Assembly: GCA_030524605.1 (NCBI GenBank)
Contig: JAUNGH010000001.1
Span: 2,242 to 39,582 of the forward strand
Direction: 5' to 3'
Source: Oscillospiraceae bacterium
GTDB taxonomy: Bacteria > Bacillota > Clostridia > Oscillospirales > Oscillospiraceae
DNA: 37,341 nucleotides
Shown: piece by piece, positions 9,150 through 35,219 of the stretch
How the letters are laid out: the number at the start of each line of letters is the position of its first letter
How positions within the stretch are numbered: the first letter of the stretch is position 1
The notes under the pieces: generated by a model
Told to the model about the DNA's origin: nothing
The model's database searches: none
The model's input: the letters and a program-made list of their open reading frames with translations, nothing else
Made by a program: the position numbers and the translations under genes

Positions 9150-9150
9150 A

Positions 9151-17298: not shown

Positions 17299-18441
17299 TC
17301 AATGGGTCGGGGCCGCTGAGACGGCACACACAAGACGCAGAATGTCCTCCAGCGTCCGGCGGTAATTGGCGGCGCTCAGAGGCGCGCTTTCCGCGAAGCC
17401 CATGGCCTTACGGTTGATGCTGAACATGGCCGTTACCCCCAGGTCATAGGCCTGGGCAGCGCTCTCATCAATGGCTCCCACGATAGCCACTAGCGGGATA
17501 CCCCGGGGCTTCGTCCGCTCCGCAATCCCCGAGATGACCTTACCGCGGACGCTTTGGGAATCGATGCGGCCCTCTCCGGTGATCACTAGGTCCGCCTCCT
17601 CCACTAAGGCGTCAAAGCCTACGGTATCTAACACGGTCGTGATGCCAGGCTTCAGCTCCGCCCCCAAAAACGCCACACAGCCGGCCCCCATCCCTCCGGC
17701 CGCACCGGCGCCGGGGAGCTCTGCGACACACAGGCTCAGATCCTTGCGGATGGCCCTGTCAAGCATCCGCAATCCACCGTCCAGCCGGTCCACCATAAGC
17801 GGGTCCGCCCCCTTCTGCGGGGCAAAAACATACGCCGCTCCGGCCGGCCCGAACAGCGGATTGTCAATATCGCACATTGCGGTGATATGAACATGCTTCA
17901 AGAGCGTTTCCGTCCCGGCGGTATCAATCCGGTGGATGCGGCTTAGACTGGCGCCTGCCGGGACAAAGCTCTGCCCCTGGCTGTCCATGAACCGCGTGCC
18001 AAGCGCCGCGGCGCAGCCGCAGCCGCCGTCATTGGTAGCGCTCCCGCCCAGGCCCAGGATGACCTCTCTGGCCCCATGCTCCACAGCATGGCGGATCAGC
18101 TCGCCCACGCCATAGGTGGTGGCCAGCTCCGGATCTGCCTGCCTGCCGGCCAGGGGTAGCCCCGCCGCAGCCGCCATCTCAACCACCGCCAGCGGACCTT
18201 TTCTAGCGTAAACCGCTTCCACCGGGTCCCCCAGCGGCCCCCGCACGGTCACGGTCACAGCTTCCGCGCCGATGGCATCCACAAAGCAGTCCACCGTGCC
18301 CTCGCCGCCGTCCGCCACAGGAACCGTTACGACCTCACACGCCGGGAATACCGAGGGGATCACCTCCCTGGCGATGGCGCAGATCTCCCTGCTGGAGAGC
18401 GTCCCCTTAAAGGAGTCGGAAACAACAATACACTTTCTCAT
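17299..18441 (-). CDS. glxK: Glycerate kinase, GlxK/GarK family
   Basis: DSFKGTLS, PVADGGEGT, GLGGSATNDGG, GAGAAGG and TGEGRIDSQS..GK motifs. Confidence 0.93.
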   Translation of the reverse strand: MRKCIVVSDSFKGTLSSREICAIAREVIPSVFPACEVVTVPVADGGEGTVDCFVDAIGAEAVTVTVRGPLGDPVEAVYARKGPLAVVEMAAAAGLPLAGRQADPELATTYGVGELIRHAVEHGAREVILGLGGSATNDGGCGCAAALGTRFMDSQGQSFVPAGASLSRIHRIDTAGTETLLKHVHITAMCDIDNPLFGPAGAAYVFAPQKGADPLMVDRLDGGLRMLDRAIRKDLSLCVAELPGAGAAGGMGAGCVAFLGAELKPGITTVLDTVGFDALVEEADLVITGEGRIDSQSVRGKVISGIAERTKPRGIPLVAIVGAIDESAAQAYDLGVTAMFSINRKAMGFAESAPLSAANYRRTLEDILRLVCAVSAAPTH

Positions 18442-18447
18442 AGAGCG

Positions 18448-19410
18448 TCAGTTCACAACGTTGACCGGGCTGCCGTCCAAATACGCCTTGACGTTTTCCT
18501 CGGTGCAGTCCATGATGCGCTGGCGGCTCTCTCTGGCACCCCAGGACATGTGGGGCGTGATCAGGCAGTTTTTCGCCCGCAGCAGGGGATTGTCGCCGCG
18601 AATAGGCTCTGTGGACACCACATCCAGGCCCGCCGCAGCAACCTTACCGGCGTTCAGCGCATCCGCGAGATCCTGCTCCACCACCATCTGACCGCGGCTG
18701 TTGTTAATGATGATGACACCGTCCTTCATTTTTGCGATATTCTCCCGGTTGATAAGACCCGTGTTGAAGGGCAGCAGCGGCATATGCAGCACGATCACAT
18801 CGGACTGGGCGAACAGCGTGTCCAGCTCCACATACTCCGCCACAGCGCGTCCCGCGTCATTCTGCCAGGCGTCATAGGCAATGACCTTCATGCCCAGGGC
18901 GCCCGCAATTTGGGCGGTATGACGGCCGATATTGCCCAGGCCAATGAGTCCCATGGTCTTGCCCTCCAGCTCGATGAGGGGATAATCCCAATAGCACCAG
19001 TCCGGGCAGCTCTCCCACCGGCCCGCCTTCACCGTCTGGTCGTGGTGGCCGATGTGGTGGCAGACCTCCAACAGCAGGGCGATGGCAAACTGGCTGACGG
19101 AATAGGTGCCGTATACAGGGACATTGGACACTGCGATCCCTTTTTCTCTGGCGCAGGCAACATCCACCACATTGTATCCCGTGGCCAGTACCGCGATAAA
19201 TTTGACGTTGGGACACGCGTCCAGTACCCGCCGGCTGACCGGCGTTTTGTTGGTCAGCACGATATCTGCGCCGCCGATGCGCCGGATCACCTCCTGCTCA
19301 TCGGTCAGGGAGGTGCGGTCATAAACCGTCAGTTCTCCGAGGCTTCCCAGCCCCTCCCAGCTCAGGTCGCCGGGGTTTTCCGTATACCCATCCAAAACTA
19401 CAATTTTCAT
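18448..19410 (-). CDS. D-2-hydroxyacid dehydrogenase, glycerate dehydrogenase/hydroxypyruvate reductase-like
   Basis: MKIVVLDG..NPGDLSW, LATGYNVVD, GLGNIG, NNSRG, DVVSTEP and TPHMSW (Arg-Glu-His triad); RBS GAGGAG. Confidence 0.9.
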   Translation of the reverse strand: MKIVVLDGYTENPGDLSWEGLGSLGELTVYDRTSLTDEQEVIRRIGGADIVLTNKTPVSRRVLDACPNVKFIAVLATGYNVVDVACAREKGIAVSNVPVYGTYSVSQFAIALLLEVCHHIGHHDQTVKAGRWESCPDWCYWDYPLIELEGKTMGLIGLGNIGRHTAQIAGALGMKVIAYDAWQNDAGRAVAEYVELDTLFAQSDVIVLHMPLLPFNTGLINRENIAKMKDGVIIINNSRGQMVVEQDLADALNAGKVAAAGLDVVSTEPIRGDNPLLRAKNCLITPHMSWGARESRQRIMDCTEENVKAYLDGSPVNVVN

Positions 19411-19593
19411 AAAAATCTCCTCTCTGTAATTGTCCAGCCGTACAGCCGGTATTGTCGGCGGTCCGGGTGTGTCTCCACATGCTCTGGGCAGCCGGAGCGG
19501 GACGCCCTTTGAAAAGATCCGCTCCGCCTGGGGACGCTGTTTTCCGCACTTTACACCTCCCTTGTGCCTGCCCGCTGGTCAGGCACCGTTCCG

Positions 19594-21021
19594 CTAAGAC
19601 TTCCGCGGAGGGCCGGGAGTCTTATTCTGTAGTTTATGGTAAAACATGGATCGGGAGAGCTGGATCCTCTTTGCCGCTTCCGTCACGTTTCCACCACTCC
19701 GCTCCAGAGCCCTGGCCAGATACAGTCTCTCAAACTCCCGCATGGCTTCCCGGTATTTTTTTTGATACAGCCCCTCCCACGGGAGATCGGCAGGAGGTGC
19801 TTCCCGCTCCTCCTGCCGCGCTTCCTCAGAGGGGCCGTTTTGCAGCAGGACCTGGGGGATGTCACTGGCTGTAATGCTTTCAAATGGGGTGATCACAAAC
19901 AATCTTTCGATCACGTTCCGAACCTCCCGCACATTGCCAGGCCAGGGATATCCCTCCAGCAACTGCCGGACGGATCCGTCCAGCTGTTTCCGCTTGCCAT
20001 ATTTAGCATTCAGTTCGTTCAGGAAATGGCAGCACAGCGGAAAAATATCCTCCCGCCGCTCCCGCAGCGGCGGAAGCGATACCGGGATCACATTCAGGCG
20101 GTAATAGAGATCCTCACGAAACTGGTTTTTCTTGACCATATCCAGTAGGTTCCGGTTTGTGGCGGCAATGATGCGGGCGTCGATGGCCTTGATGGTACTG
20201 CCGCCGATTTTTCGTATTTCCCCGTTTTCCAAAACCCGCAGGAGCTTGGACTGCACGGAGAGCGGAAGCTCGCCGATCTCATCCAGAAAAAGGGTGCCGC
20301 CGTTAGCCAGCTCAAAAAGACCCGTTTTTCCCTCCCGGCTGGCGCCTGTGAAGGCCCCCCTCTCATATCCGAAGAGCTCCGCCTCGATCAGCTCCGGCGG
20401 AAACACGGCGCAGTTGATGGGCAGAAACAGACGATCCCTGCGGCTGCTGTTTTTGTGGATATAGCGGGCCACCACCTCCTTGCCTGTTCCGCTCTCCCCC
20501 AGAATCAGGATCGTGCTGCTGGAATAGGACACCGTTTTCAAAATGGAAAACAGTTCCTTCATCGCCCGGGACTCCGCGACGATCTGACCGTTTCCGCTGA
20601 GGGTGTTGGTAAAGCTGATGATGTTGTCAAGGCGGTTCCGCTCCTCACTGAGCTTTCGAAGCATGTCGTCCACATAGTTCATGCCCTGACTGTATGCGAT
20701 CACATACTCCAGAGCGCCGCTGCCGTCGTAAACCGGAATGGACGTGGTCATCAGAGGATGGCGCACATTTCCCTCCAGATATTCCGTCACCGGCTTTCCC
20801 AACCGCAGGGCTCGCAGGCTGGGGGAGTGCTGCCAGAAACCCCGGCGCACCAGATCCTCCATATTGCTGTTCAGCAGCTCCTGGTAGGTGATGCCCTTGG
20901 TGTTTTGCACAACATTTTCATTGGCATATACCACTTTTCCCTTTTTGTCAAGTACCAGAATCGTCCCATAATAGTTTTCGATGATCTTTTCATACAGCGC
21001 CATCAAATCCTTCTGCTCCAT
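19594..21021 (-). CDS. sigma54-dependent enhancer-binding protein (PAS-AAA+-Fis HTH)
   Basis: GESGTGKE, intact GAFTGA, LFLDEIGEL, FREDLYYRL, WPGNVRE and C-terminal GNVTEAA HTH; RBS GAGGAGG. Confidence 0.95.
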   Translation of the reverse strand: MEQKDLMALYEKIIENYYGTILVLDKKGKVVYANENVVQNTKGITYQELLNSNMEDLVRRGFWQHSPSLRALRLGKPVTEYLEGNVRHPLMTTSIPVYDGSGALEYVIAYSQGMNYVDDMLRKLSEERNRLDNIISFTNTLSGNGQIVAESRAMKELFSILKTVSYSSSTILILGESGTGKEVVARYIHKNSSRRDRLFLPINCAVFPPELIEAELFGYERGAFTGASREGKTGLFELANGGTLFLDEIGELPLSVQSKLLRVLENGEIRKIGGSTIKAIDARIIAATNRNLLDMVKKNQFREDLYYRLNVIPVSLPPLRERREDIFPLCCHFLNELNAKYGKRKQLDGSVRQLLEGYPWPGNVREVRNVIERLFVITPFESITASDIPQVLLQNGPSEEARQEEREAPPADLPWEGLYQKKYREAMREFERLYLARALERSGGNVTEAAKRIQLSRSMFYHKLQNKTPGPPRKS

Positions 21022-21054: not shown

Positions 21055-21819
21055 TCACTCGCAGAGCCACCCCCCGTCCGCCGCGATGACCGCACCTGTC
21101 ACATAATTGGCCGCGTCAGAGGCCAGGAAGACAGCGCTGCCGATGATGTCCTCCACAGTGCCCAGCCGCCGCATGGGGATTTTGCGGATAATACTCTTGT
21201 AGACTCTCTCATCCTGGAAATCCTTTTCATTGAGCGACGTGACGATATAGCCCGGCACCAGCGCGTTCACATTGATGTTATACCGTGCCCACTCCATGGC
21301 AAGCCCCTTTGTCACCTGGGCCAGTCCGCCTTTAGCTGCCAGGTAGGGCAGCACCAGCTTTCCCCCTACATAGCCGTAGACGGAGACGGTGTTTATGATG
21401 CGCCCCTTGTTCTGGCGGATCATGATTCTGCCCACCGCCTGCGCCGCCATGAAGGCACCCCGCAAATCCACGTCCAGCACCCGGTCCCAGTCGTCCATCG
21501 TCAGGTCCTCCGCCTTTTTGGTGATCGCGGTGCCGGCGTTGTTCATCAGGATGTCGATGTGCCCGAAGGCCGCTGCGGCAGCTTCCGCCATCTTCTCTAC
21601 GGCGGCCTGGTCGGTGATGTCCGTGGGCAAGGGCAGGGCTCTGCGGCCCATTGCCCGGATCTCCTCCGCGGTTGAAAGGCAATCCCGCTCGTTTCTTCCG
21701 ACCACCACCACGTCGGCGCCGGCATTAGCAAGGCCCAGGGCTAGGGCGTGGCCGATATTCCGGGTGGCGCCGGTGACCAGCGCCACCTCTCCGGTCAGGT
21801 CAAATGTGGGAAATTTCAT
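21055..21819 (-). CDS. SDR oxidoreductase, gluconate-5-dehydrogenase/KduD-like
   Basis: TGATRNIG (variant Gly motif), NNAG, YLAAK and DGG; ATGA overlap with the upstream CoA-transferase B gene. Confidence 0.9.
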   Translation of the reverse strand: MKFPTFDLTGEVALVTGATRNIGHALALGLANAGADVVVVGRNERDCLSTAEEIRAMGRRALPLPTDITDQAAVEKMAEAAAAAFGHIDILMNNAGTAITKKAEDLTMDDWDRVLDVDLRGAFMAAQAVGRIMIRQNKGRIINTVSVYGYVGGKLVLPYLAAKGGLAQVTKGLAMEWARYNINVNALVPGYIVTSLNEKDFQDERVYKSIIRKIPMRRLGTVEDIIGSAVFLASDAANYVTGAVIAADGGWLCE

Positions 21820-22691
21820 AAAAACAGCTCCTTTTTTACACCGGACATCCGCTCCAGCGAACGCTCCAGCATGGCAATATATTTTTCAAAGGTCAGGTCC
21901 TTCAGCCCATCGCCGGTGAAAATCTGTTCCGGGTCCAGGGTCCGGATGATCCGCACCTCCTCCCCGGTGGGGGCAGCGGTCTCGGTCACATGCTCCGCTG
22001 TCAAAAGCTCCCACGGGATCTGTTCCTGCACCTCGTCCACCGTAACCCCGGGGTGAACGCTGGCGAGCATCAGCTCCCTTGTCACGGGATGGAAGCGGAA
22101 GACGCATTTGTCCGTGATGACGGCGGCGGAACCGCCCTGCCGCAGCCCGGTCCTCTCCCGGGAGTCTCCGCCTTCAAGGTAGCCGGGCGAGGTGATATAG
22201 TCCACCCGCTCCAGAAAGCGCCGCCGCTGAAGTGGGATGGAGATCACCGTGCGCAGGGCGCTGCTGGCGATGTCATTGGCGCCGCCGCTGCCGGGCAGGC
22301 GAGAAGCCGGCGTCTCATAGCTCCCGCTTCCAAAAATTGCTGTGCTGTTCAGATTTCCATAGCGGTCCACCTGGGCGCCACCTACCATGCCGATATCCAC
22401 AAATCCCCTCTGCTGGTCGGAGAACAGCCGCCACAGCGGCTCCACGCAGAGGGCGTTTTCGCTGCACGCACAGTCGCCGATTCCCAGAATGAGCCGCTTG
22501 GGTCTCGGACCCACCGCGCCGCTCTCGGTGGCGATCACCGCGTTTGGAGCATGGGTCCGCTGCGCCAGAAGTGCACCTAGCAGCGGATTGCCCACGCCCG
22601 CGAACACCACCTCTCCATCCCGGATCTCCCGCGCGGAGGCAACAATCATCAATTCGCTCAGCGTGTATCCCGTATATCGTTCCGTATTCAT
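21816..22691 (-). CDS. Family I CoA-transferase subunit B, GctB/CatJ-like (291 aa)
   Basis: RBS GAGGAGG before ATG 22691; catalytic Glu in TESG, GAQVDRYGNLNST, LPGSGGANDI and VDYITSPG. Confidence 0.9.
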   Translation of the reverse strand: MNTERYTGYTLSELMIVASAREIRDGEVVFAGVGNPLLGALLAQRTHAPNAVIATESGAVGPRPKRLILGIGDCACSENALCVEPLWRLFSDQQRGFVDIGMVGGAQVDRYGNLNSTAIFGSGSYETPASRLPGSGGANDIASSALRTVISIPLQRRRFLERVDYITSPGYLEGGDSRERTGLRQGGSAAVITDKCVFRFHPVTRELMLASVHPGVTVDEVQEQIPWELLTAEHVTETAAPTGEEVRIIRTLDPEQIFTGDGLKDLTFEKYIAMLERSLERMSGVKKELFL

Positions 22692-22707: not shown

Positions 22708-23634
22708 TTACACGCCCGGATCAAACCGCTGCTCCGCCTGCCGGAGCTTCATCAGCCGTTCGTAGCCCACCCGGCGCAGATAGCCCTCCCAGCTGCCCGC
22801 CGCGTCGCAGTAATCGTCCATCCACGCCAGAAAGCCCTCCCGCGTCCTGAATGCCTTCACCTGTTCCGTGTGAAACGGCAGGTCATAGGCGTATTCATAG
22901 GCCATGTTCCACGGGTGGCAGGCAAAGGGGACCTCGCAGACGGCGTCCACCGTGTAGCCGGGGATCAGCGTCAGGTTGGGGGTCCTGCGGATCAAATCTT
23001 CATCTACGAGCTTCTCACAGGTCAGGATTGTATGCCGGGCGGCTCGGGCAATATTTTCAGCGCTGGCGGAGATACCGAAATACTGACCATTGCCGGATCG
23101 GTCCGCCCGGGAACAATGGATCAGCGCTACATCCGGCCGCGCCGCCGGCACCAGGACCACCCGCTCTCCGGTGTAGGGATCGTCCATGGTTTTCAGCTGC
23201 CGGTTATAGGTCAGAAAATCCGAGCCCAAAAACGACTTTGTCGGCATGAACGGCACACCCATTGCGCCTGCCAGGAACCGAAGCGACATGCCGTAGTTGG
23301 AATACTCCTCCAGCTCTATGCGGCGGGGCACCTTATTCTCCACGCAGCGGCGGTAGTTATAGCTCAGCCCCGCCACGGCGTAGGCGATCCACGCCACCTC
23401 GGCCCGCCTAACCAGTCCCATGCCGATCAAAAGATCCGCCGGCTCCGCCGGACTTTCACAAAGCAGCGTCAGATCCCCGATCCGCTGTCTGGCGATCTCG
23501 TATGCATGGGCCACACACTGCGTCCCTCCCATGCCGCCAAAGGCCACGGAAACGCCCGGCTTGACGAACGTCCCCACAGCCTCTGACAGCGGCATCCTCT
23601 TGTCCTGCTTTTTCCGGTAAGTATTAGTTTCCAA
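22708..23634 (-). CDS. Family I CoA-transferase subunit A, GctA/CatI-like
   Basis: TTG start with RBS GGGAG; LRFLAGAMGVPFMP...GSD, DPYTGE.V.LVPA..PDVALIH...AD..GN and VDAV.EVPF..HP. Confidence 0.88.
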   Translation of the reverse strand: METNTYRKKQDKRMPLSEAVGTFVKPGVSVAFGGMGGTQCVAHAYEIARQRIGDLTLLCESPAEPADLLIGMGLVRRAEVAWIAYAVAGLSYNYRRCVENKVPRRIELEEYSNYGMSLRFLAGAMGVPFMPTKSFLGSDFLTYNRQLKTMDDPYTGERVVLVPAARPDVALIHCSRADRSGNGQYFGISASAENIARAARHTILTCEKLVDEDLIRRTPNLTLIPGYTVDAVCEVPFACHPWNMAYEYAYDLPFHTEQVKAFRTREGFLAWMDDYCDAAGSWEGYLRRVGYERLMKLRQAEQRFDPGV

Positions 23635-23694: not shown

Positions 23695-23710
23695 AGCAAA
23701 AATAATGCCA
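23695..23710 (-). promoter_or_regulatory. sigma54 -24/-12 promoter of the CoA-transferase operon
   Basis: TGGCAT-TATTT-TTGCT on the minus strand, about 60 bp before the start codon. Confidence 0.88.
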
Positions 23711-23760: not shown

Positions 23761-23817
23761 TGTCCAATATCCCGCACATATGCGTCCGGTTTTTCGGACT
23801 GTCCAAAAAACCGGACA
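23761..23817. promoter_or_regulatory. Three putative enhancer (UAS) sites, TGTCC-N8-GGACA
   Basis: TGTCCAATATCCCGCACA (23761-78), cGTCCGGTTTTTCGGACt (23783-800) and TGTCCAAAAAACCGGACA (23800-17), between two sigma54 promoters. Confidence 0.75.
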
Positions 23818-23859: not shown

Positions 23860-23875
23860 TGGCACACGTTTTGCT
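23860..23875 (+). promoter_or_regulatory. sigma54 -24/-12 promoter of the abfD-like operon
   Basis: TGGCAC-ACGTT-TTGCT matches the consensus. Confidence 0.92.
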
Positions 23876-23928: not shown

Positions 23929-25377
23929 ATGCGCACATTTCAGGAATACCGGCAAAAGCTATACTCCATGCGGAAAAATGTCTATATCAACGGCAAGCTG
24001 GTGGAACGGGACGACCCACGCCTGCTTGGCGGGCAGAACATCATCGGCATCACCTTTGACGCCGCCATGTCGGACGATCCCAAGCTCCGCGAGCTGGCCA
24101 CCGCCGTCTCGCACCTGACCGGGCACACCATCAACCGCTTCGCCCATATTTACCAGTCGCCGGACGATCTGCTGAAAAAGCAGCAGATGATCCGGGAGCT
24201 GGGCCATATCGCCGGCGGCTGTATTCAGCGCTGTATGGGCTGCGACGCCATCAATGCCCTGTATGTCTCCACCTATGAGATCGACCAGCAATACGGCACG
24301 GATTACCACGCCCGCTTTCAAAAATACCTGGCCTGGTACCAGGACAACGACCTGGTGGGCAACGCCGGCCAGACCGACGTAAAGGGAGACCGTTCCAAGC
24401 GGCCGTCCGAACAGGCCGATCCCGACCTGTACATGCACATTCTGGAAAAGCGGGAGGACGGCATTATCGTGTCCGGCTGCAAAGCCCACAACACGATTGC
24501 CCCCTACGCGGATGAGATCCTGGTCCTCCCCACCCGGGCCATGCGGGACTCTGATGCCGACTGGGCCGTGGCCTTTGCCGTCCCCGCCGACGCAGAGGGC
24601 GTCACCCTGATCTCCCGCCCCGTATCTCCCAACCCGCGTCTGGAACTGAAAGCGCCCTATAACACCTATGGCATCTGCGACACTATGACGGTGCTGGACC
24701 ATGTGTTTATCCCCAACGAGCGCATTTTTATGTGCGGCGAGGCGGATTTCGGCGGGCGTCTGGCGCTGTCCTTCGCCAACAACCACCGTTTCAGCTACTG
24801 CGGCTGCAAACCTGCCATCACCGATGTGTTCATCGGCGCCACGGCGCTGGTCGCCGAATACAACGGCGTGCCCAAGGCCCCCCACATCCAGGACGAGCTG
24901 GCGGAGCTGGAGGCCACCGCGGAGCTAGTCTATGCTGCCGGCATCGCCGCATCCACCATGTCCAAGGTCACGCCGTCCGGCGCCAGAGAGCCGAACTTTC
25001 TCTACACCAACTGTGGCCGCTATCACGCCGGGAAAAACATCATGCATGAGTATGACATCCTGATCTCCACCGCCGGAGGCATGGCCGCCACGCTGCCTTT
25101 TGAGGGCGACTGGCTCAATCCCGAGACCCGGCCCTATCTGGAAAAGTACATCATGCGCAATCCTGGGATCAGCCCGGAAAACCAGCACCGGCTCTTCCGC
25201 TTTCTGGACGATTTCACCGTCTCCGCCTGGTGCGGTATGGAACAGGCGGCCGGCATCCACGGCGGCGGCTCCCCCATCATGGAGAAAATCGGCATCCGCA
25301 CCAGCTATGATGTGGAGGGCAAGAAGAACATCGTCAAGCGGCTGGCCGGGATCGACGATTCCAAAAATCAGAAGTGA
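23929..25377 (+). CDS. 4-hydroxybutyryl-CoA dehydratase (AbfD)-like FAD/[4Fe-4S] protein (482 aa)
   Basis: RBS AAGGAGG before ATG 23929; CIQRCMG and HRFSYCGCK supply 3 Cys + His cluster ligands; TDVKGDRS..P.EQ.DPDLY and HGGGSP. Confidence 0.88.
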   Translation: MRTFQEYRQKLYSMRKNVYINGKLVERDDPRLLGGQNIIGITFDAAMSDDPKLRELATAVSHLTGHTINRFAHIYQSPDDLLKKQQMIRELGHIAGGCIQRCMGCDAINALYVSTYEIDQQYGTDYHARFQKYLAWYQDNDLVGNAGQTDVKGDRSKRPSEQADPDLYMHILEKREDGIIVSGCKAHNTIAPYADEILVLPTRAMRDSDADWAVAFAVPADAEGVTLISRPVSPNPRLELKAPYNTYGICDTMTVLDHVFIPNERIFMCGEADFGGRLALSFANNHRFSYCGCKPAITDVFIGATALVAEYNGVPKAPHIQDELAELEATAELVYAAGIAASTMSKVTPSGAREPNFLYTNCGRYHAGKNIMHEYDILISTAGGMAATLPFEGDWLNPETRPYLEKYIMRNPGISPENQHRLFRFLDDFTVSAWCGMEQAAGIHGGGSPIMEKIGIRTSYDVEGKKNIVKRLAGIDDSKNQK

Positions 25378-26266: not shown

Positions 26267-27034
26267 ATGGGTCATATCAAGGTCACACAGTCCGGCCCTG
26301 CGGCCGTTTTATCCATTGACCGGCCCGAGGCGCTGAACGCCCTGAGCCGCGCCCTAGTGGACGAGCTGGATGAGATGTTAGAGCAGCTGGCCGCTTCCAA
26401 CGAGATCAAGGCCCTGATCCTGTACGGCCCCCGAAACTTTGCCGCCGGGGCCGACATCCGCGACATGGCCGGCTGCACGCCGGAGCAGGCCTCCACCTTC
26501 TCTTTCACCCCCACCTTCAACCGATTGGGAGAGTTCCCGGTCCCGACCATTGCCGCCATGGAGGGCTATGCCCTGGGCGGCGGGTTGGAACTGGCGCTGG
26601 CCTGTGATCTGCGCATCGCCGGGGAGTCCTGTAAAATGGGCTTTCCGGAGATTACGCTGGGCATTATGCCGGGAGGTGGCGGCACTGCCCGCGCCCCCCG
26701 GCTTGTCGGCACCGCCAAGGCCATGGAGCTGATCTTTACCGGCAGCGTCATCTCCGCGCCGGAGGCGCTGCGCATTGGTCTTGTCAATCAGACAGTGCCC
26801 GATGGTGAGGTGCTTCCCCAGGCGCAAAAGCTCGCCGGACGCATCTCCGCGTTCAGCCGGACCGCGCTGGAAACCGCCAAGCAGACGATCTTAGAGGGGG
26901 CGCGCCATCCCTCCGTCCTCTCGGCGGCTGCCGTAGAGTATAGAAACTGGCCGTCCCTGTTTGCCACGCAGGACCAGAAGGAAGGGATGCGCGCCTTCCT
27001 GGAAAAACGGAAGCCGGTCTTTACGGACCGCTGA
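26267..27034 (+). CDS. Enoyl-CoA hydratase (crotonase family)
   Basis: RPEALNAL, FAAGADI, ALGGGLELALACD and PEITLGIMPGGGGT (both catalytic Glu present). Confidence 0.93.
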   Translation: MGHIKVTQSGPAAVLSIDRPEALNALSRALVDELDEMLEQLAASNEIKALILYGPRNFAAGADIRDMAGCTPEQASTFSFTPTFNRLGEFPVPTIAAMEGYALGGGLELALACDLRIAGESCKMGFPEITLGIMPGGGGTARAPRLVGTAKAMELIFTGSVISAPEALRIGLVNQTVPDGEVLPQAQKLAGRISAFSRTALETAKQTILEGARHPSVLSAAAVEYRNWPSLFATQDQKEGMRAFLEKRKPVFTDR

Positions 27035-28369: not shown

Positions 28370-29245
28370 TCAAGTGGCGGGGATGTACTTTTTCTCCCGC
28401 TCCTGGATGGAGGGCATGCCCAGCAGGCTGACCAGCTCATTGTGATCGGCTTTTTCAAGGGGCATACCGGCCTGCTCGTGATGCTCGCCTACAAATTGAA
28501 TGGCCTTTTTCAGCGCGGGATACATATAGTTGATGGGGACCAGCGCGAAGTGGGCGATCTTGGGCTTGATGTACTCCAGATCCTTTCTGGTCAGGCTGTC
28601 CAGCCCACCGCAGACCACCAGGGAGACTCTTCCGTCCATAGCGTCCACGAACCGCTTGATCTCCTCCGGATTGCCATGGAAGGACTTGCTGATGCCCTGG
28701 ACCAAGTCGGCGCCGGCATCCAGATACATCCTGGCCCGCCGGTACTGCTCCTCCTGATCGGTGATATCCGTGCGGGCGATGATCACCGTCTCGGGATAAA
28801 GGCGGTTCTCCGCAGCGGCGCGGATCTTTCCGGCGGCCTCCTCGGCGGAGATGGTGGTATTCAGATCCGTCACGCAGATGGGGCAGCGCTTGGGGCTGAT
28901 TTGATCTTCAATGATTACACCGGAGACGCCGGCGCGCTCAAAGTCGTTCACGGTCTTGATGGTCGTGACGGCGTTGCCGTAAGCGGTGTCGATATCGGCA
29001 ATCAGGGGAACGTCGATGACATAGCACATGTTGGACACCGCATAGACATTGTCCGAACGGGTGTAAAGCTCGGCGTCGGGAAGGCCCATGGCCTGGGCCG
29101 CCAGCGTGAAGCCGCTGGACAAAATCGCGTCGACGCCTGGGGTCCGGCTGGCGATCTTGGCGGACAGCGCATCGCCCACGCCGATGGTATAAAGAGTCTC
29201 CTTCTCCGCCATCAAACGGCGAAGCGTACCTCGGTCAGTCATCAT
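28370..29245 (-). CDS. Isocitrate lyase/PEP mutase superfamily enzyme, PrpB/2,3-dimethylmalate-lyase-like, with an atypical loop
   Basis: DALSAK, SSGF, GLPD, PLIADIDTAYG, IIEDQ.SPKRC, IIARTD and YLDAGAD. Confidence 0.88.
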   Translation of the reverse strand: MMTDRGTLRRLMAEKETLYTIGVGDALSAKIASRTPGVDAILSSGFTLAAQAMGLPDAELYTRSDNVYAVSNMCYVIDVPLIADIDTAYGNAVTTIKTVNDFERAGVSGVIIEDQISPKRCPICVTDLNTTISAEEAAGKIRAAAENRLYPETVIIARTDITDQEEQYRRARMYLDAGADLVQGISKSFHGNPEEIKRFVDAMDGRVSLVVCGGLDSLTRKDLEYIKPKIAHFALVPINYMYPALKKAIQFVGEHHEQAGMPLEKADHNELVSLLGMPSIQEREKKYIPAT

Positions 29246-29295: not shown

Positions 29296-29847
29296 TCAGA
29301 TACTTGCGTTCTCCTCGTCCGGATCCTTTCCTTGGTAGAGGATGGTGGTATTGTCAGTCAGGATATTTTTCAGTAAGACGAACAGGCTTTCCACCGTCAT
29401 CATGACATACGCCAAAGGCGGCAGGTAATACATGAACCAGACCGGAAGCGAAGTCGTGCCGGCGACAAAGGACAGGTTGTCCTGGGTGGCGGAGATGGCA
29501 TATTTCATGGAAAAAAGGAACATCAAAATATACGCAGCCATCTCCAGAACCGGCAGAATGATCACATTGACGCGCTGCGCCTTGTGGGGCAGGCGGTTGG
29601 TCATGGCCACGATGCGCGGCATCACGCCGGAGGCCAGGGCCAGGCACATGGAGGGCAGGATCGTCAGCGGCATGATATAATAGGACACGATTTCAAACGT
29701 TCCGACCAGCGCGGTGGAGGACAGGTTGCGGACCAGCACGTCCACGGTGATATAGAGCATCATGATGAACACACCAGCGCCGCCCAACGCGAGCATGCAG
29801 TTTTTGATCTTGCTGTGGATACCATACAGTTTATCAACGGTTTTCAT
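29296..29847 (-). CDS. TRAP transporter small permease, DctQ-like
   Basis: Four TM helices; DVLVRN...GTFEI and P.W..Y..P motifs; adjacent to DctM. Confidence 0.85.
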   Translation of the reverse strand: MKTVDKLYGIHSKIKNCMLALGGAGVFIMMLYITVDVLVRNLSSTALVGTFEIVSYYIMPLTILPSMCLALASGVMPRIVAMTNRLPHKAQRVNVIILPVLEMAAYILMFLFSMKYAISATQDNLSFVAGTTSLPVWFMYYLPPLAYVMMTVESLFVLLKNILTDNTTILYQGKDPDEENASI

Positions 29848-29863: not shown

Positions 29864-31171
29864 TTACAGCATCAGGCTCGGCAGGAACGTCACGATCTGC
29901 GGGAAGAGGACCATCAGTCCGCCGACAATGACCGTCGCGGCCAGCGCAAAGACCATAGACCGCTTAAAGGGCCCCTCCACCGGGATCCCGGCGGTGCCGC
30001 ACACGGAGTAGACGCAGACGCCCACGGGAGGCGTCAGCTGGCCGATGACGCAGCAGAAGCAGACAACGATGCCGAACCACAGCATGTCAACACCCAGCTC
30101 CTGCATAACGGGGAGCAGCACAGGGGTGGTCATCACGATGACGGCCGTGCCCTCCATCAGCATGAACAGGACAAAGTACACGATGATGCAGATGACCAGG
30201 ATAATCCGTGGATGGGACATCAGGGGGCCCAGCAGCTCCACAAAGGCGTCGGAGACCTTGCTCAAAGACATGAACCGGCCGAAGATCTTGGCGCCGATCA
30301 TGATCAGCATGACCATGGCGGTGATGTTCACAGTGCTCTTGGCTGCCCGGACCAGGAATTCTTTGGTAACTTTCCCCAGGCACAGCGCGCAGATCAGGGC
30401 CACCGTGGCGGACACCGCGCCGGCCTCCGTGGCGGTCATAAAGCCGGAGTAAATGCCGCCGAAGATCGTAACCGCGATGATGCAGGCGACGGTGATGGAG
30501 ACAATGGCGTTACGCTTGTCAACGTGGACTGGCGTAAACGCGGACACCGCGCCGGACGCCTTGCTCTCCCCCCGCAGGAAAAACAGGGTGCAGCCGATGA
30601 ACACCAGCGTTGTCAAAACGCCGGGGATCACGGACGCCACAAACAGCCGTCCAATCGGCGTCTCCGTGGTGATGCCGTAGACGATGATGGTGATGCTGGG
30701 CGGGATGATCCCGGCCAGGGACCCGGCGGAAGCGGAGACCGCCGCCGCCAGGTCGGAACTGTATCCGCGTTTGACCAGCTGGGGATAGGCAGCCTGGCCA
30801 AGCGCGGCGGAGGTCGCCGTGCCGGAGCCGCAGACCGCGCCCAGAAACGCGCCCAGAATGGAACAGAACGCACCCAGGACACCCTTCCGGCCATGGGAGA
30901 TGTTGTACAGGATGTTGAACAGGTCTTCGACGACGCCCGCCTCCAGGATCAGCTGTGCGCAAAGCACATACAGCGGGATAGTCGTCATGGAATAGGTTGC
31001 GACAGTCGTGAAGGTCGTGTAGCTCAGAAGGCCGGGGAGCAGAGCGGTTTTTCCCAATGCGGCGATACCAACGATACCCACCGCCAGCAGCATGGAGTGG
31101 ATATACAAGCCGCCCAGCAGCAGGACGATCAGCGTGACCGCAGCAACTAAAATTGCGGCGCCAGTTGACAT
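29864..31171 (-). CDS. TRAP transporter large permease, DctM-like
   Basis: IPLYVL, GSGTAT, GIIPPSI..IVYG, TATEAG and GQLTPPVG. Confidence 0.93.
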   Translation of the reverse strand: MSTGAAILVAAVTLIVLLLGGLYIHSMLLAVGIVGIAALGKTALLPGLLSYTTFTTVATYSMTTIPLYVLCAQLILEAGVVEDLFNILYNISHGRKGVLGAFCSILGAFLGAVCGSGTATSAALGQAAYPQLVKRGYSSDLAAAVSASAGSLAGIIPPSITIIVYGITTETPIGRLFVASVIPGVLTTLVFIGCTLFFLRGESKASGAVSAFTPVHVDKRNAIVSITVACIIAVTIFGGIYSGFMTATEAGAVSATVALICALCLGKVTKEFLVRAAKSTVNITAMVMLIMIGAKIFGRFMSLSKVSDAFVELLGPLMSHPRIILVICIIVYFVLFMLMEGTAVIVMTTPVLLPVMQELGVDMLWFGIVVCFCCVIGQLTPPVGVCVYSVCGTAGIPVEGPFKRSMVFALAATVIVGGLMVLFPQIVTFLPSLML

Positions 31172-31215: not shown

Positions 31216-32427
31216 TCAGCCGGCATACTCCGCCAGCAGAGTCTCCAGAGCCTCATCGACGCCATCAATCATCTCCGCGCCGTTGTCAACCATGCAGTCC
31301 CTCCACAGCTTGCAGATCTTCGCACCGGGAACGCCGCTCTCCTCCAGCATCTCCACATAGTCGATCCAGGTCTGTACACAGGCGGAATTGACCTTGTCCT
31401 GCAGATCCTGAGGCAGATCGGTGTACTGCACAAACTTGCCGCCATTGCCCTCGACAGTCGCCTTGACCTCCTCGGTCTTGGCATCCCAGTACTCGCAGCC
31501 GGCAGGCAGAAGCTCCGCGGCGGCGTCCGTGATAATCTGCTGGTAGACCTCGGGCATGGAATCCCAGAAGTCCTTGCTCCAGCCCATGCCGGCGGTAAAG
31601 TGGCCGAAGCTCAAGCCTTCGATGGCATACTTATAGAGCTCGTCCAGGCCATAGGAAGCCCAGTCAGGGATCTGCTGGAAGCCGCCGTCAGCGGTGCCGC
31701 GGGACAGGGTATCGTACAGGTCATAAGCGGTGACATTCAGCGGCGTGATGCCCAGCTCATCAGCCAGGAACTGCTGGGGACGGCTGGAGGTGCGGATGAT
31801 CAGGCCGGACCAGTCGGTCATGGTGGTGATATCCTTGGTGGTCGTGGAGATCGCGTTACCGGGAGGGTTGTTGTGGGCGATGAAATGCACGCCGTTATCC
31901 TCAAAATACAACTCATTGAAGGTCTTGCCGTCGGCAATGATCTCATCGCTGTTCAACAGGTCCACATAGGCGTTGGAGCAGATCTCGGCGGTGGAGATCT
32001 TGATGGGCAGCTGCGGGACGTCACCGGCGGGGAAACGGGAGGTGTCATAGATGGGAGTCAGGGGCATGGCCACGTCGGCAACGCCATCGCGGAGAGCGTC
32101 GTATTCCTTGCCGCCGTCCACCAGCTCGCCGGACAGATAGGTCTCCCAGGTGATCAGGCCATCGGATAGCTCGGTGACCCGATCCATGAAGGGCTCATAG
32201 AAGCCGGCATAGCAGCAATGGGTGTTGTTCAGGGCAGAGGTCATCACGATCTCAAGGGGCTCCGCTCCAGTCAGATCGTAGCCGTAGGCATTGACGCCGG
32301 AGGTGGACTGGGCAGCATCGCCGTCATTCGTGTCTGCCGGCGTCTCATCGCCGCCTCCGCAGGCAGCCAGGGACAAAACCAGGGTTGCGCTCAGCAGGAG
32401 TGCCAGAAACTTCTTTGCCTTTTTCAT
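31216..32427 (-). CDS. TRAP substrate-binding lipoprotein, DctP-like (403 aa)
   Basis: RBS AAAGGA before ATG 32427; lipobox LAAC; SGEL...DALRDGVAD, D.SGL.IR and YDTLSRGTADG. Confidence 0.9.
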   Translation of the reverse strand: MKKAKKFLALLLSATLVLSLAACGGGDETPADTNDGDAAQSTSGVNAYGYDLTGAEPLEIVMTSALNNTHCCYAGFYEPFMDRVTELSDGLITWETYLSGELVDGGKEYDALRDGVADVAMPLTPIYDTSRFPAGDVPQLPIKISTAEICSNAYVDLLNSDEIIADGKTFNELYFEDNGVHFIAHNNPPGNAISTTTKDITTMTDWSGLIIRTSSRPQQFLADELGITPLNVTAYDLYDTLSRGTADGGFQQIPDWASYGLDELYKYAIEGLSFGHFTAGMGWSKDFWDSMPEVYQQIITDAAAELLPAGCEYWDAKTEEVKATVEGNGGKFVQYTDLPQDLQDKVNSACVQTWIDYVEMLEESGVPGAKICKLWRDCMVDNGAEMIDGVDEALETLLAEYAG

Positions 32428-32485: not shown

Positions 32486-32986
32486 TCACATTCTCTTTTC
32501 GCGGATATAATTGATCAGGCTTCCGCATTCCACAATATCCTTGGTGCGCTGGGGAACCGGATTGCACGTCAGGACTCTCTGCCCGTTGATCACAACCCGG
32601 TTGGCCTCCCAGTCCAGTTCCACAGTGTCCCAGCGCTTTACGGCGTCCAGGATCCCGGGGACTTCAATTAGGGCCACGCCGTTGGCAACCTCCCCCTTAT
32701 AAAAGCTGGGGTTGAAGCTCTCGGCAAAAACGGTGCGGATCCCCAGCGCCCGCAGGGCCTTGAAAGCCACATAGTGCGGGTGGCCGTAACCAAAGTTTTC
32801 GGCGCCCACCAGAACGTCTCCATCCTGCACGACCTGCGCAAAATCAGGATCATAGTCAGACATACAGACCTTTTTCATCTGCTCGATGTCACTGAGCTTA
32901 ATGTTTGCAACACCCACGATATTATCAATGTCATAGTTGGGCTCTTCAAAAACCCAGGCAATCCTGCCTTTCACCTTGGGAAGCAT
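32486..32986 (-). CDS. Aconitase-family small (swivel) subunit, LeuD-like, atypical active site (166 aa)
   Basis: RBS AAAGGAG before ATG 32986; DPDFA..V..GDVLV...NFG.G, ALGI..V.AESF and IVECGSL.NY; GHPHY replaces GSSRE. Confidence 0.88.
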   Translation of the reverse strand: MLPKVKGRIAWVFEEPNYDIDNIVGVANIKLSDIEQMKKVCMSDYDPDFAQVVQDGDVLVGAENFGYGHPHYVAFKALRALGIRTVFAESFNPSFYKGEVANGVALIEVPGILDAVKRWDTVELDWEANRVVINGQRVLTCNPVPQRTKDIVECGSLINYIREKRM

Positions 32987-33000: not shown

Positions 33001-34251
33001 TTACAACACTTTTCTGGGATCGGTGACCTTGCCATAGAGCAGGGACGCGGCGATCGTATAGGGGCTGGCGGTGTAGATATCTGCCTTGGTGCAGCCCATG
33101 CGGCCGGGAATATTCAGCGTGCCGGTGGACAGCGCCACCTCGCCGGCGGTCATTGTGCCCAGCATGCCATAGCAGAAATCGCAACTGGGATAGTAAACGC
33201 ACGCGCCCGTGTCGATCAGCCTGCCCATCATGCCGTTTGCGGCCAGCTCCTTTTGCAGCTTCACAGAGGCAGGGACCGCGTACATATGGGTGCCAGCGGC
33301 GATATGCTTGCCCTCCAGGATCTCCAGGACCTGCCGGAAATCGGAAACGCGTCCGCTGGCGCAAGAACCCACATAGCCGATGTCCACCTTCATCCCCTCA
33401 TAATCCGCGATATCGACCGTGTTTGCGGAAGAGGGCGGCGCCACCAGGACGGGAGCCACCGTACTCAGGTCCAGCGTGTATTCCTTGGCATAGACGGCGT
33501 CCTTGTCAGGCGTCACATGGGTATATTCCCTTCTGGCGGTTCCGGCCAGGAAGGCGTCCGTTTTGTCATCCTGCTCGCAGACAGCGGTGACTGCGGAGAG
33601 GAACATGGCCTGGTTGCACATGGTAATGCGGTCATCCATGCTCAGCTCCCGCAGCCCTTCCCCGCCGAATTCGATGCACAGCGAGCAGCCGCCGGAGGGG
33701 CCCAGCCGCCGGACCAGCGTGTGGAAGACATCCCGGGCGGTGACGCCCTTTTCCAATTTGCCGGTCAGGTTGACGCGGAGGGTGCCGGGCACCACAATGG
33801 ATACCTTGTTGGTGGCCAGCGCCTCAATCACCGCGTTGCGGACGCTGATCGCGCCGGCGCCCAGGGCGCCCAGCGTGCTGACATGGCCGTCAAAGTGAAT
33901 CACCATCATGCCCGGAACGATGTAGCCCTCTTCCATAATGACCTGATGTCCGATCCCCACATCCTCGTAAAGCCGGATGTTGCAGCGCTTTGCAAAGCTG
34001 CGGGTCTTTACGTGGACCTCCCGGTACTTGGTGTCGCCGGCGGGGTTGAAATGATCAATGAAAAACATAAATTTCTCCGGCTTATTCACCGTGAGGCATT
34101 TCAGTTCCTCCAGTTGCCGCTCATAGGAATCAATGTATCCCGGATAGTCATACGCGATCGTCAAATCAGGCTCAAACAGGGCTTCATCCCCCGCCCGCAC
34201 CGTTCTGCCCAGGTTTTGGGACAGAATTTTTTCAATAATCGTTTGGCCCAT
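33001..34251 (-). CDS. Aconitase-family large subunit, LeuC/HacA-like [4Fe-4S] protein, atypical (416 aa)
   Basis: RBS GGAGGAG before ATG 34251; MGQTIIEKIL, IDH, GIGHQV, GSCASGR, PSCDFCYG (three cluster Cys), GRMG and YTASP. Confidence 0.92.
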   Translation of the reverse strand: MGQTIIEKILSQNLGRTVRAGDEALFEPDLTIAYDYPGYIDSYERQLEELKCLTVNKPEKFMFFIDHFNPAGDTKYREVHVKTRSFAKRCNIRLYEDVGIGHQVIMEEGYIVPGMMVIHFDGHVSTLGALGAGAISVRNAVIEALATNKVSIVVPGTLRVNLTGKLEKGVTARDVFHTLVRRLGPSGGCSLCIEFGGEGLRELSMDDRITMCNQAMFLSAVTAVCEQDDKTDAFLAGTARREYTHVTPDKDAVYAKEYTLDLSTVAPVLVAPPSSANTVDIADYEGMKVDIGYVGSCASGRVSDFRQVLEILEGKHIAAGTHMYAVPASVKLQKELAANGMMGRLIDTGACVYYPSCDFCYGMLGTMTAGEVALSTGTLNIPGRMGCTKADIYTASPYTIAASLLYGKVTDPRKVL

Positions 34252-34283: not shown

Positions 34284-34305
34284 TTCATCGAATTTATTCG
34301 ATGAA
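34284..34305. promoter_or_regulatory. Palindromic operator, probable TetR site
   Basis: TTCATCGAAT-TT-ATTCGATGAA directly downstream of the -10 of the leuC-like promoter. Confidence 0.75.
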
Positions 34306-34314
34306 CTTGTTTTA

Positions 34315-34343
34315 ATAATATCATCGTTTATCTGTTTTGTCAA
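34315..34343 (-). promoter_or_regulatory. Strong sigmaA promoter of the leuCD-TRAP-lyase operon
   Basis: TTGACA-N17-TATTAT with a TG extension. Confidence 0.85.
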
Positions 34344-34487
34344 TTTTTTTCTTATTATCCTCTCTTTTTTTATCAAAAAACGTCAAAACTAACAAATGCC
34401 TTTTTTGTTTTCATAAATTCTGCTCTATGACTGTCCTGAAAATTGGACACATTTTCATTCATTCGTCGAATCTACTTTAAAAAAGAA

Positions 34488-34516
34488 TTGATTATTTCTT
34501 CCAAATCATTTATGAT
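34488..34516 (+). promoter_or_regulatory. sigmaA-type promoter of the TetR gene
   Basis: TTGATT-N17-TATGAT. Confidence 0.65.
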
Positions 34517-34562
34517 AATATAAATATTTCAGGCGTATTTCAGGGAAATTGGAGGAACTGTT

Positions 34563-35219
34563 TTGGAAGAGAAGAAATTGACCAGACGGCGGCAGCAGGC
34601 AATTGATACCAAAAACAGGATCTTTGAGGTCACCATGCAGCTTGGCTCGGAGATCGGCTACGAGTCCTTGGATATCAGCAGCATCTGCAAGGCGGCGAAC
34701 ATCTCCGTCGGGACCTTTTATCACTACTTCCGCTCGCTGGACGCGGTTTTTCAGGAGCAATATTATCAATATGACAGCTTTATTGCGAAGTCTATCCAGG
34801 ACTCTCCGCTCTTGGGGTCCGCCACCGAACGGCTCTGGCAGCTGTTCTCTTTGAAATACAGGTATGTGGTGGCCCACGGCGTTCAGTCCATCGTCCGCCA
34901 GTACCGAGGCCAATTCGCACAGGTCGATTCTGAAAACAGCATATTTTATTCCGAGGAGCGCATCACCGTCAAAGCGCTGATTTCTATTCTGGAGGAGGGC
35001 ATCGCAAACGGCGAATTTGTTATGGGTGATTCCCCCAAATTTGTCGCCAATGTCCTGCTGGTATTTTCCCGCGGGATCCTGGTGGACTGGGCGCTGAAAA
35101 ACGGCAGTTATGATTTGGAGAAAGTTGCTCTGCAAAACCTGAACCTGATCATGCGTCAGTATATCGTTGACCCCGGCTCGTCTGGGACGCCTCTTTCCCA
35201 GCAGCCGCGCCCTTCCTAA
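34563..35219 (+). CDS. TetR/AcrR-family transcriptional regulator
   Basis: TTG start with RBS GGAGGA; TKNRI...GYE...IS.ICKAANISVGTFYHYF.S HTH. Confidence 0.92.
   Translation: MEEKKLTRRRQQAIDTKNRIFEVTMQLGSEIGYESLDISSICKAANISVGTFYHYFRSLDAVFQEQYYQYDSFIAKSIQDSPLLGSATERLWQLFSLKYRYVVAHGVQSIVRQYRGQFAQVDSENSIFYSEERITVKALISILEEGIANGEFVMGDSPKFVANVLLVFSRGILVDWALKNGSYDLEKVALQNLNLIMRQYIVDPGSSGTPLSQQPRPS

Follow-up and report, generated by a model that had tools for sequence, protein, structure and literature searches.

A gut bacterial gene cluster that may encode a new fermentation based on three divergent enzyme subfamilies

Seventeen genes of an Oscillospiraceae bacterium (assembly GCA_030524605.1, contig JAUNGH010000001.1), lying within an analyzed stretch of 37,341 nucleotides (hereafter the window), may encode a new gut fermentation that degrades a dietary or host compound of unknown microbial fate. 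In this reading, to which we give a probability of roughly 0.55, the pathway would be built on three uncharacterized subfamilies: a His-based hydro-lyase of the aconitase family, a KRCP-loop enzyme of the ICL fold that cleaves a C-C bond, and a clade of AbfD enzymes without Glu455, common across anaerobes, whose substrates would be hydroxyacyl-CoAs that are longer or carry substituents.

We infer every reaction, the substrate, the fragment split and the redox balance of the following route, in which one imported organic acid is split and both parts are fermented, and whose chances as a whole we put slightly below even. The TRAP system would import the acid, the remodeled LeuCD would hydrate it to a 2-hydroxy acid, and retro-aldol cleavage by the KRCP enzyme would release hydroxypyruvate and an oxo-acid of five carbons or longer. 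Hydroxypyruvate would pass through HprA and glycerate kinase to phosphoglycerate. For the oxo-acid, which may resemble levulinate or be a 5-oxo acid, the SDR would carry out a reduction and GctAB the activation with CoA; the Glu455-less AbfD would then form an enoyl-CoA, and Crt, Hbd, and thiolase would break this down to acetyl-CoA and a shorter acyl-CoA. Two reducing equivalents would be spent by HprA and the SDR and two regained through Hbd and housekeeping pyruvate oxidation, so that Bcd/Etf would be unnecessary. Other candidate substrates were considered and set aside as leaving modules unexplained, namely hydroxycitrate, tartrate, aldarates, itatartarate/aconate, chelidonate, homoisocitrate/glutarate, phenyl-valerolactones, and 2-deoxyribonate-type thiolysis to glyceryl-CoA.

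Gene Content of the Cluster

A first-pass annotation had described 17 genes of named families at 17299..35219, and domain and family profile searches agreed with it for every open reading frame and its family. The left edge of the cluster is marked by a terminator-like hairpin between glxK and gdhA (17126..17153, minus strand). The lower module begins on the minus strand with a class I glycerate kinase of the GlxK/GarK type (17299..18441; Pfam PF02595, TIGR00045 above cut-off) and an HprA-type D-2-hydroxyacid dehydrogenase (18448..19410), likely a hydroxypyruvate/glyoxylate reductase, with no second close copy elsewhere in the host genome. These are followed by a PAS-domain sigma54 enhancer-binding protein (19594..21021), a classical SDR with YxxxK that is likely an oxo-acid reductase (21055..21819), and the GctB-like beta (21816..22691) and GctA-like alpha (22708..23634) subunits of a CoA-transferase, all on the same strand. 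The best PDB match of GctB/GctA is 1poi, and the alpha/beta pair, with Glu54 kept in beta, is of the glutaconate CoA-transferase type (family I), in whose beta-subunit numbering we take Glu54 to be catalytic. The SDR gene adjoins the CoA-transferase in the host (G000) and in G801, G802, and G1016. On the plus strand lie the AbfD-like [4Fe-4S]/FAD enzyme (23929..25377), a 3-hydroxyacyl-CoA dehydrogenase (Hbd, 25392..26249), an enoyl-CoA hydratase with both catalytic Glu motifs (Crt, 26267..27034), and a thiolase with its Cys/His/Cys motifs (27059..28243).

The upper module, on the minus strand, comprises the KRCPIC-type ICL/PEP-mutase-fold enzyme (28370..29245), TRAP DctQ (29296..29847), DctM (29864..31171), and the substrate-binding lipoprotein DctP (31216..32427), together with LeuD-like small (32486..32986) and LeuC-like large (33001..34251) subunits, and is bordered by a TetR regulator gene on the plus strand (34563..35219). 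As had been claimed, the lower module is devoid of a transporter and the cluster of an acyl-CoA dehydrogenase and Etf; Bcd homologs are encoded elsewhere in the host genome, and a DASS transporter is added in the Dysosmobacter segnis and G801 versions of the cluster.

Divergent Enzymes of the Upper Module

In alignment, the LeuC-like subunit still has the three cluster Cys, the DH, and another two His, but DGH and TGTLN replace DSH and TSNRN, which contain substrate-binding residues of the family. In LeuD, GYGHPHY stands where 3vba, 2pkp, and 1v7l have G(C/I)GSSRE (GCGSSRE in its Cys form), a motif that presumably supplies the catalytic Ser and Arg, and G(Y/F)GH is found in 119 of 120 LeuD homologs. 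Scores of LeuCD fall short of the NCBIfam cut-offs (345 vs 385 and 101 vs 109 bits), and a search of the ESM Atlas returned LeuD-type names only. Judged by these motifs, LeuCD is a divergent subfamily.

The loop of the ICL-like enzyme reads KRCPIC rather than KRCGH, and KRCPIC is seen in 93 of 120 homologs. Its relatives include Bacillales and Marinobacter lyases at 52-58%. A single-sequence fold gave a pLDDT of 39.5, and the model built from an alignment reached 94, with TM scores of 0.84-0.90 to MICL/PEPM/PPH. The ICL/PEP mutase superfamily fold, metal-binding acidic residues, and Arg are all present, with D57, D84, D86, E113, and R158 invariant among aligned relatives. The enzyme falls outside the MICL/Dml/OAH lyase branch (KRCGH lost; PrpB 127 vs 354 bits) and also outside PEP mutase/phosphonopyruvate hydrolase (no Cys-less K(V/D)(N/T)S loop; 109 vs 320 and 104 vs 374 bits). 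In lyases of the MICL/Dml/OAH branch, Tyr, Glu, and Asn act as partners of the KRCGH loop; opposite a KRCGH protein, the KRCPIC enzyme has L in place of this Y, I/Q in place of E, and V in place of N. The Tyr, His, Glu, and Asn of canonical lyases are all missing from it, and retro-aldol chemistry is therefore not assured.

This leaves room for a single pathway with other upper chemistry, which we consider unlikely. LeuCD could hydrate an acylacrylate or dehydrate a diol, and a 2-hydroxyacid dehydrogenase could form an acylpyruvate (a 2,4-dioxo acid) or a beta-keto acid, from which the KRCP enzyme, as a hydrolase or decarboxylase, could free (hydroxy)pyruvate and an acid for activation by GctAB. 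The top sequence matches of the lyase, phosphonopyruvate hydrolase, PEP mutase, and PA4872 oxaloacetate decarboxylase, point this way, as does a Polaromonas plasmid locus in which an FAH-family protein, together with an FAD D-2-hydroxyacid dehydrogenase, takes the place of the lyase beside the same LeuCD type, a neighborhood that suits 2,4-dioxo acid hydrolysis. Azospirillum and Variovorax clusters contain FAD oxidoreductases, and that of G1535 has a CoA ligase, of the AMP-forming type and directly after the lyase, without an aldehyde dehydrogenase. However, no dehydrogenase accompanies the KRCP-type enzyme in the clusters of G1535, G800, G071, Comamonas, and Rhodococcus, and the loop Cys is invariant in all 59 aligned sequences, matching expectation for a proton donor.

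The Glu455-Less AbfD Clade

The AbfD-like protein is homologous to 1u8v over its full length (E 1e-105). Its [4Fe-4S] ligands C99, C103, H292, and C299 are kept (CIQRC, HRFSYCGCK), and both ligand motifs occur in 109 of its 120 top homologs. Also kept, in alignment to 1u8v, are T190 (HNT) and Y296 (SY), which a preprint describes as important in AbfD, along with a role for E455 in the canonical enzyme (DeMirci bioRxiv). E455 is replaced by A and E257 by D, and no Glu stands at 455 in any of 119 motif-bearing homologs among the top 120. In a midpoint-rooted tree of hand-picked rows, 22 Glu455-less rows split from eight Glu455 rows with 100/100 support, the variant standing apart from canonical AbfD. 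A canonical AbfD (C223, ESMHG) is encoded elsewhere in the host genome, and in L014 and G1016 one adjoins the variant; the Glu455-less enzyme therefore probably acts on a different substrate.

Alternatively, the variant could be a gamma-eliminating C4-X lyase that converts a 4-substituted butyryl-CoA to crotonyl-CoA, the bulky leaving group being glycerate (from an ether) or an amine, so that glycerate would come from the lower module; we regard this as rather doubtful. It would account for hprA and the kinase lying within the lower transcription unit in the host and G801, for a G801 cluster without hbd, crt, and thl, as if housekeeping enzymes took the crotonyl-CoA, and for variants with an aminotransferase, ProC, and 2-oxoacid:ferredoxin oxidoreductase in L014 and G995. 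A precedent for amine elimination at C4 is BbuA, an acyl-CoA-dehydrogenase-like flavoenzyme with ~10% identity to 4HBD (bioRxiv 2021.01.25.428109). Nonetheless, the [4Fe-4S] Lewis-acid site is kept, suiting an oxygen leaving group, and dedicated Crt/Hbd/thiolase paralogs in G000, G802, G1016, and L014 suggest a product other than crotonyl-CoA. We also know of no natural glycerate-ether substrate, which counts against this lyase.

Regulation and Linkage of the Two Modules

The upper module had been placed under TetR and sigmaA and the lower under sigma54 and a PAS-type activator, and the promoter motifs agree. The gctA-abfD gap contains two exact sigma54 -24/-12 motifs pointing outward, one for gctA (23695..23710, minus strand) and one for abfD (23860..23875, plus strand), and only nine exact motifs occur in the whole 2.34 Mb genome; at one mismatch the window has three vs 2.8 expected, which is chance level. 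TGTCC-N8-GGACA palindromes, one exact and one with a mismatch (23761..23817), are candidate activator sites, and a second exact copy upstream of tetR (34432..34449) is a possible cross-talk site; shuffle tests for this motif were modest (7/500 and 87/2000). A sigmaA-type promoter with 11/12 matches precedes leuC (34315..34343, minus strand), and just downstream of its -10 lies a perfect palindrome (34284..34305; core TCGAAT-NN-ATTCGA), likely the TetR operator, which is the sole exact copy in the host genome and is conserved in D. segnis and G801.

Two other gut anaerobes carry both modules together. In D. segnis, they form one co-oriented operon with 13 matching genes (63-91% identity), followed by the DASS transporter and tetR. 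In G801, an Anaerovoracaceae genome, they are rearranged around tetR, and the same TetR-type palindrome stands before both operons, at leuC with 0 and 1 mismatch and at abfD with 1 and 2 mismatches. That the modules are functionally linked, as proposed when they were first said to converge in one pathway, is well supported by this single operon and shared box. Thus far three differing arrangements have been seen, with the modules adjacent in each, although G000 and D. segnis appear to be of the same genus, so that just two independent lineages carry both.

The proposed glycerate branch is probably real and moderately supported, because the G801 lower operon includes hprA and a non-homologous MOFRL glycerate kinase after the lower genes; such a pair comes after the SDR in both the host and the distant G801, the kinases being of different classes. 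Against this branch, hprA/kinase pairs, which are common cassettes, lie outside the cluster in D. segnis, elsewhere in its genome.

Separate occurrence of the modules had been named as a sign against one pathway. Each is indeed also found alone, the upper in G071, G800, G1535, and proteobacterial plasmids and the lower in G1016 and L014, yet the pattern fits a shared intermediate and not unrelated pathways. Since each module has other partners when alone, we read the arrangement as a plug-in one, with an acid intermediate as the common point. Counting against the proposed route, G071 (96% complete) has LeuCD and the lyase without a close AbfD or GctA. In its favor, a CoA-activating enzyme accompanies the upper module elsewhere, namely the G1535 ligase and, nearby in Burkholderia and Variovorax, a CaiB transferase. 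In G1016, the lower module is preceded by an HpcH aldolase cluster, whose C-C cleavage likewise releases a carbonyl. In two metagenome loci, GctAB orthologs (52-59%) and AbfD-type genes adjoin hemB; levulinate inhibits HemB.

Two unrelated pathways and a hitch-hiking hprA-glxK pair, joined on mobile DNA and responding to different compounds, could also produce modules that occur alone and have separate regulators in the window. Consistent with this, GC3 is 0.67-0.83 in 17/17 cluster genes, below the genome median of 0.86, and integrase and NikA-like genes lie beside the D. segnis cluster. The D. segnis operon, the TetR box before both G801 operons, and the adjacency of the modules through three arrangements make this quite improbable. 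In a search for aerobic contexts, a close lyase turned up in one of 391 order-level genomes and in none of 61 family-level, 221 class-level (best E 1e-38), or 400 other phylum-level genomes. An insertion-site comparison covering five genomes recovered no copy of the flanking anti-sigma gene.

Significance

The cluster, of which we found no published description in the literature, offers a compact and testable way into what would be a new pathway of gut catabolism, as D. segnis is culturable and has the full set in one operon; its AbfD-like protein is on 769 public contigs. Such a pathway would also reveal what is done by three subfamilies that currently carry the annotations LeuD, methylisocitrate lyase, or 4-hydroxybutyryl-CoA dehydratase. 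Additionally, the Glu455-less clade reaches sulfate reducers, Carboxydothermus, and probably archaea, so it may be a mistake to take such genes as a marker for 4-hydroxybutyrate metabolism.

Comparison with Known Systems

Eubacterium barkeri reportedly ferments nicotinate through DmdAB (dimethylmaleate hydratase) and Dml (2,3-dimethylmalate lyase), the analogy drawn in the first-pass annotation. It holds insofar as a LeuC/LeuD-type Fe-S hydro-lyase is again paired with an ICL-fold enzyme, but the catalytic motif of LeuD, the Arg/Ser of LeuC, and the KRCGH loop of the lyase have each given way to other residues, and the cluster adds a TRAP system and a CoA module. None of the E. barkeri nicotinate genes, of which we take the upstream ones to be a dehydrogenase, reductase, mutase, and isomerase, is among the 17, whose families are all otherwise assigned. 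A true route of this type, in which a substituted maleate/malate (a dicarboxylate) is hydrated and then split so as to yield 4-hydroxybutyrate, or something closely similar, along with a 2-oxo acid, is very improbable: the presumed sharing of enzyme families and gene order and the lactonases of two folds (MBL, SMP-30) in aerobic versions speak for it, but LeuCD no longer has GCGSSRE or the first TSNRN Arg, the lyase has no KRCGH, and AbfD has no Glu455.

The likeness to 4-hydroxybutyryl-CoA dehydratase AbfD of C. aminobutyricum (PDB 1U8V) is likewise partial: the Fe-S ligands, T190, and Y296 are shared and hbd/crt/thl follow, whereas E455 and E257 are lost, the clade is separate, and GctAB and the SDR replace a Cat2-type transferase. 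On present sequence evidence, both systems are analogies only, and with defining residues lost in LeuCD, lyase, and dehydratase, neither a dimethylmaleate-type dicarboxylate nor plain 4-hydroxybutyryl-CoA is a likely substrate.

The KRCPIC enzyme shares with MICL, OAH, PEP mutase, and phosphonopyruvate hydrolase the fold, SSG oxyanion segment, DID and EDQ acidic residues, and ARTD Arg, but differs in its loop, its 23-28% identity to any solved member, and its scores below NCBIfam cut-offs. Lastly, the bbu gamma-butyrobetaine pathway of Emergencia timonensis resembles the cluster in belonging to a gut anaerobe and in combining a CoA transferase with C4 elimination to an enoyl-CoA, but, as described, it differs in having no LeuCD, ICL-like enzyme, or glycerate branch (bioRxiv 2021.01.25.428109).

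The cluster and its genomic setting

We conclude that the cluster (window 17299-35219) is a real, linked and modular pathway without prior characterization, which includes three divergent enzyme subfamilies and whose reactions we infer. All 17 of its genes are intact, and the gene families named for them in the first-pass annotation were confirmed, as was the absence of acyl-CoA dehydrogenase (Bcd) and Etf within the cluster; Bcd homologs are encoded elsewhere in the genome (C191, C45). The window sits in contig C258 of a genome that is 84% complete and apparently of one genus with Dysosmobacter segnis (the two genus samples overlap). GC3 is 0.67-0.83 in 17/17 cluster genes, all below the genome median of 0.86, which suggests acquisition. 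To the left are genes for a YbhJ-type aconitase, NADP isocitrate dehydrogenase and glutamate dehydrogenase (window 6912-10508 and 15736-17085) and two membrane-protein genes that overlap each other, of which the second matches DUF2812 (10879-13558), while an ECF sigma factor and an anti-sigma-like partner (DUF4179/DUF3298) lie at the right edge (35507-36855).

Joint and separate occurrence of the modules

The proposed linkage of the two modules is well supported, as they are joined in D. segnis and in an Anaerovoracaceae genome (G801), with a shared box in the latter, but each is also found alone. In D. segnis, leuC, leuD, dctP, dctM, dctQ, icl, abfD, hbd, crt, thl, gctA, gctB and the SDR gene share one orientation, their proteins are 63-91% identical to the window counterparts, and a DASS transporter and tetR come next. 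Three metagenome contigs repeat this arrangement near-identically and are not independent. G801 has a third gene order, abfD-gctA-gctB-SDR-DASS-kinase-hprA on one strand, tetR, then leuC-leuD-dctP-dctM, with dctM-dctQ-icl continuing on the next contig; the kinase encoded there belongs to the MOFRL class and is unrelated to the class I kinase of the window. Integrase and NikA-like mobilization genes lie immediately upstream of the D. segnis operon (L007:369-2948). Split matches suggest frameshifts (assembly error or decay) in an SDR gene (L012), a gctB (L013), and both Polaromonas leuC copies and a Comamonas binding protein (L065, L032).

The upper module stands alone in G071, a 96% complete genome with LeuCD and the lyase and no close AbfD or GctA, where a sodium:solute symporter and a URO-D/MtaA-family gene face the LeuCD-lyase trio (L003:1-2491). 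It is also alone in a small genome of 1.3 Mb (G800) and in a low-GC, Bacilli-type genome (G1535), where tetR, leuC, leuD, TRAP and lyase are ordered as in the window and an acyl-CoA ligase follows the lyase. The same LeuCD type (40-48%) occurs on Proteobacterial and Rhodococcus plasmids, where its neighbors are a transporter, IclR or LysR, and either an ICL-like or an FAH-family enzyme; a lactonase-like protein or FAD oxidoreductase is often present as well. The lower module stands alone in genome G1016 (HpcH aldolase cluster, PAS activator, CaiB, SDR, an 82% AbfD variant, hbd, crt, thl and canonical abfD; lyase unmatched) and at locus L014, where ProC, an Ord-like dehydrogenase, 2-oxoacid:ferredoxin oxidoreductase and an aminotransferase precede a 90% AbfD variant. 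This joint and separate occurrence reads as a plug-in architecture centered on one acid intermediate. The system is rare, with the lyase in 1/400 family, 1/391 order and 0/400 other phylum genomes, and a close AbfD variant in 2/251 genomes of G801's family, G801 included, and 1/71 of a genus sample (G802 itself).

Promoters and operators

The suggested division of control, sigma54 for the lower module and sigmaA for the upper, agrees with predicted motifs. The gctA-abfD gap carries divergent exact sigma54 motifs, of which the whole genome has only 9, and rpoN, recognized by its N-terminal sequence, is apparently on contig C223; at leuC, a perfect palindrome lies immediately downstream of a sigmaA promoter. 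TCGAAT-NN-ATTCGA has its single exact genomic copy ahead of leuC. Matches to it also precede leuC in D. segnis (1 mismatch) and in G801 (0 and 1 mismatches), where others (1 and 2 mismatches) precede abfD; none was found upstream of leuC in G800, G071 or G1535. A spaced palindrome, TGTCC-N8-GGACA, is common to the window's two control regions, and is modest evidence because 7/500 and 87/2000 shuffles also gave a shared palindrome of such a type and 26 exact copies exist across the genome.

Divergent enzymes

LeuCD, the lyase and the AbfD-like protein depart in sequence from textbook enzymes. LeuD has GYGHPHY at the site of GCGSSRE in solved LeuD/HacB, and G(Y/F)GH is common to 119/120 homologs among the matches listed. 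LeuC keeps its three Cys and DH/His residues, with DSH changed to DGH and TSNRN to TGTLN. In aconitase numbering, these changes presumably eliminate the Ser base along with two Arg that bind carboxylate, which suggests a putative substrate with a single carboxylate and a more acidic proton. The lyase model has the ICL/PEPM fold (pLDDT 94, TM 0.84-0.90, 23-28% identity to solved members); its loop Cys-Pro is invariant in 59/59 sequences, and KRCPIC occurs in 93/120 homologs among the matches listed. Lyase homologs with a named source include those of Neobacillus, Sporosarcina, Marinobacter and Azospirillum. DctP has weak best PDB matches (E 5e-16), several of which we take to be aromatic monocarboxylate binders (a lead only).

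The AbfD-like protein retains C99/C103/H292/C299, T190 and Y296, with Ala at position 455 and Asp at 257; bioRxiv 2020.02.05.935528 gives T190, E257, Y296 and E455 as residues that matter for dehydration. Glu455 occurs in 0/119 motif-bearing homologs (120 matches listed), and in a tree of 30 rows chosen by hand the Glu455-less rows separate from canonical AbfD with support 100/100. Canonical AbfD is also encoded, on C223, beside crt, a CoA-transferase-like gene, a sigma54 activator and probable rpoN, a block that D. segnis shares with bcd/etf added (L039); a housekeeping 4-hydroxybutyrate route coexists with the variant. GctB retains Glu54, and the motifs of Crt, Hbd, thiolase and the SDR are all preserved.

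Elsewhere, a 50%-identity Glu455-less AbfD has an acyl-CoA dehydrogenase immediately after it at L111-L113 (G1776, G1807, G1805), with a divergent IclR-like regulator and, in G1807, Etf; these loci are possibly a reductive route. Glu455-less AbfD accompanies 2-oxoacid:ferredoxin oxidoreductase in L014, L078 (G995) and L076 (G814); DUF362 is also present in L014 and G814, and the set in L014 and G995 is extended by ProC, an aminotransferase, an SNF-type transporter and a Ppnp-like cupin. This looks like a separate amino-acid fermentation (proline/pipecolate-like), not yet described.

Proposed pathway and comparison with known systems

We propose that an imported acid would be hydrated and cleaved to hydroxypyruvate and an oxo-acid of C5 or longer, both fragments being fermented. 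Hydroxypyruvate would yield phosphoglycerate, and the oxo-acid would be reduced, activated with CoA, dehydrated by the AbfD variant, in which Glu455 loss would give space for substrates beyond C4, and thiolysed. Two reducing equivalents would be spent at the HprA and SDR steps and two regained through Hbd and pyruvate oxidation, a balance that would account for the absence of Bcd/Etf; 2-oxoacid oxidoreductase homologs are encoded in the genome. We place the whole scheme at 0.45, and four rivals (a hydrolase, a C4-X lyase, separate pathways and a Dml-type route) jointly hold the remainder. The D. segnis hprA-kinase pairs lie elsewhere in its genome, away from the cluster, which counts against the glycerate branch. 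At two metagenome loci, hemB adjoins GctAB/thiolase/AbfD-type clusters on opposite sides (L021:6231-7250, L022:3-899); its position beside GctAB orthologs hints at a levulinate-like acid, and these loci may mark levulinate or 5-aminolevulinate catabolism. ProC/aminotransferase/oxidoreductase neighbors hint at a 5-hydroxyacyl route.

Full-text searches of literature with few subscription papers turned up no description of the cluster or its motifs, whether in PMC13599835, bioRxiv 2021.01.25.428109, PMC13288912, bioRxiv 2026.02.13.705874 and bioRxiv 2020.02.05.935528 or elsewhere. The analogies first drawn survive as a likeness in overall working, which would resemble DmdAB/Dml coupled to AbfD beta-oxidation; however, with the residue changes in LeuCD, the lyase and AbfD, the cluster enzymes fall outside both the DmdAB/Dml and the AbfD types.
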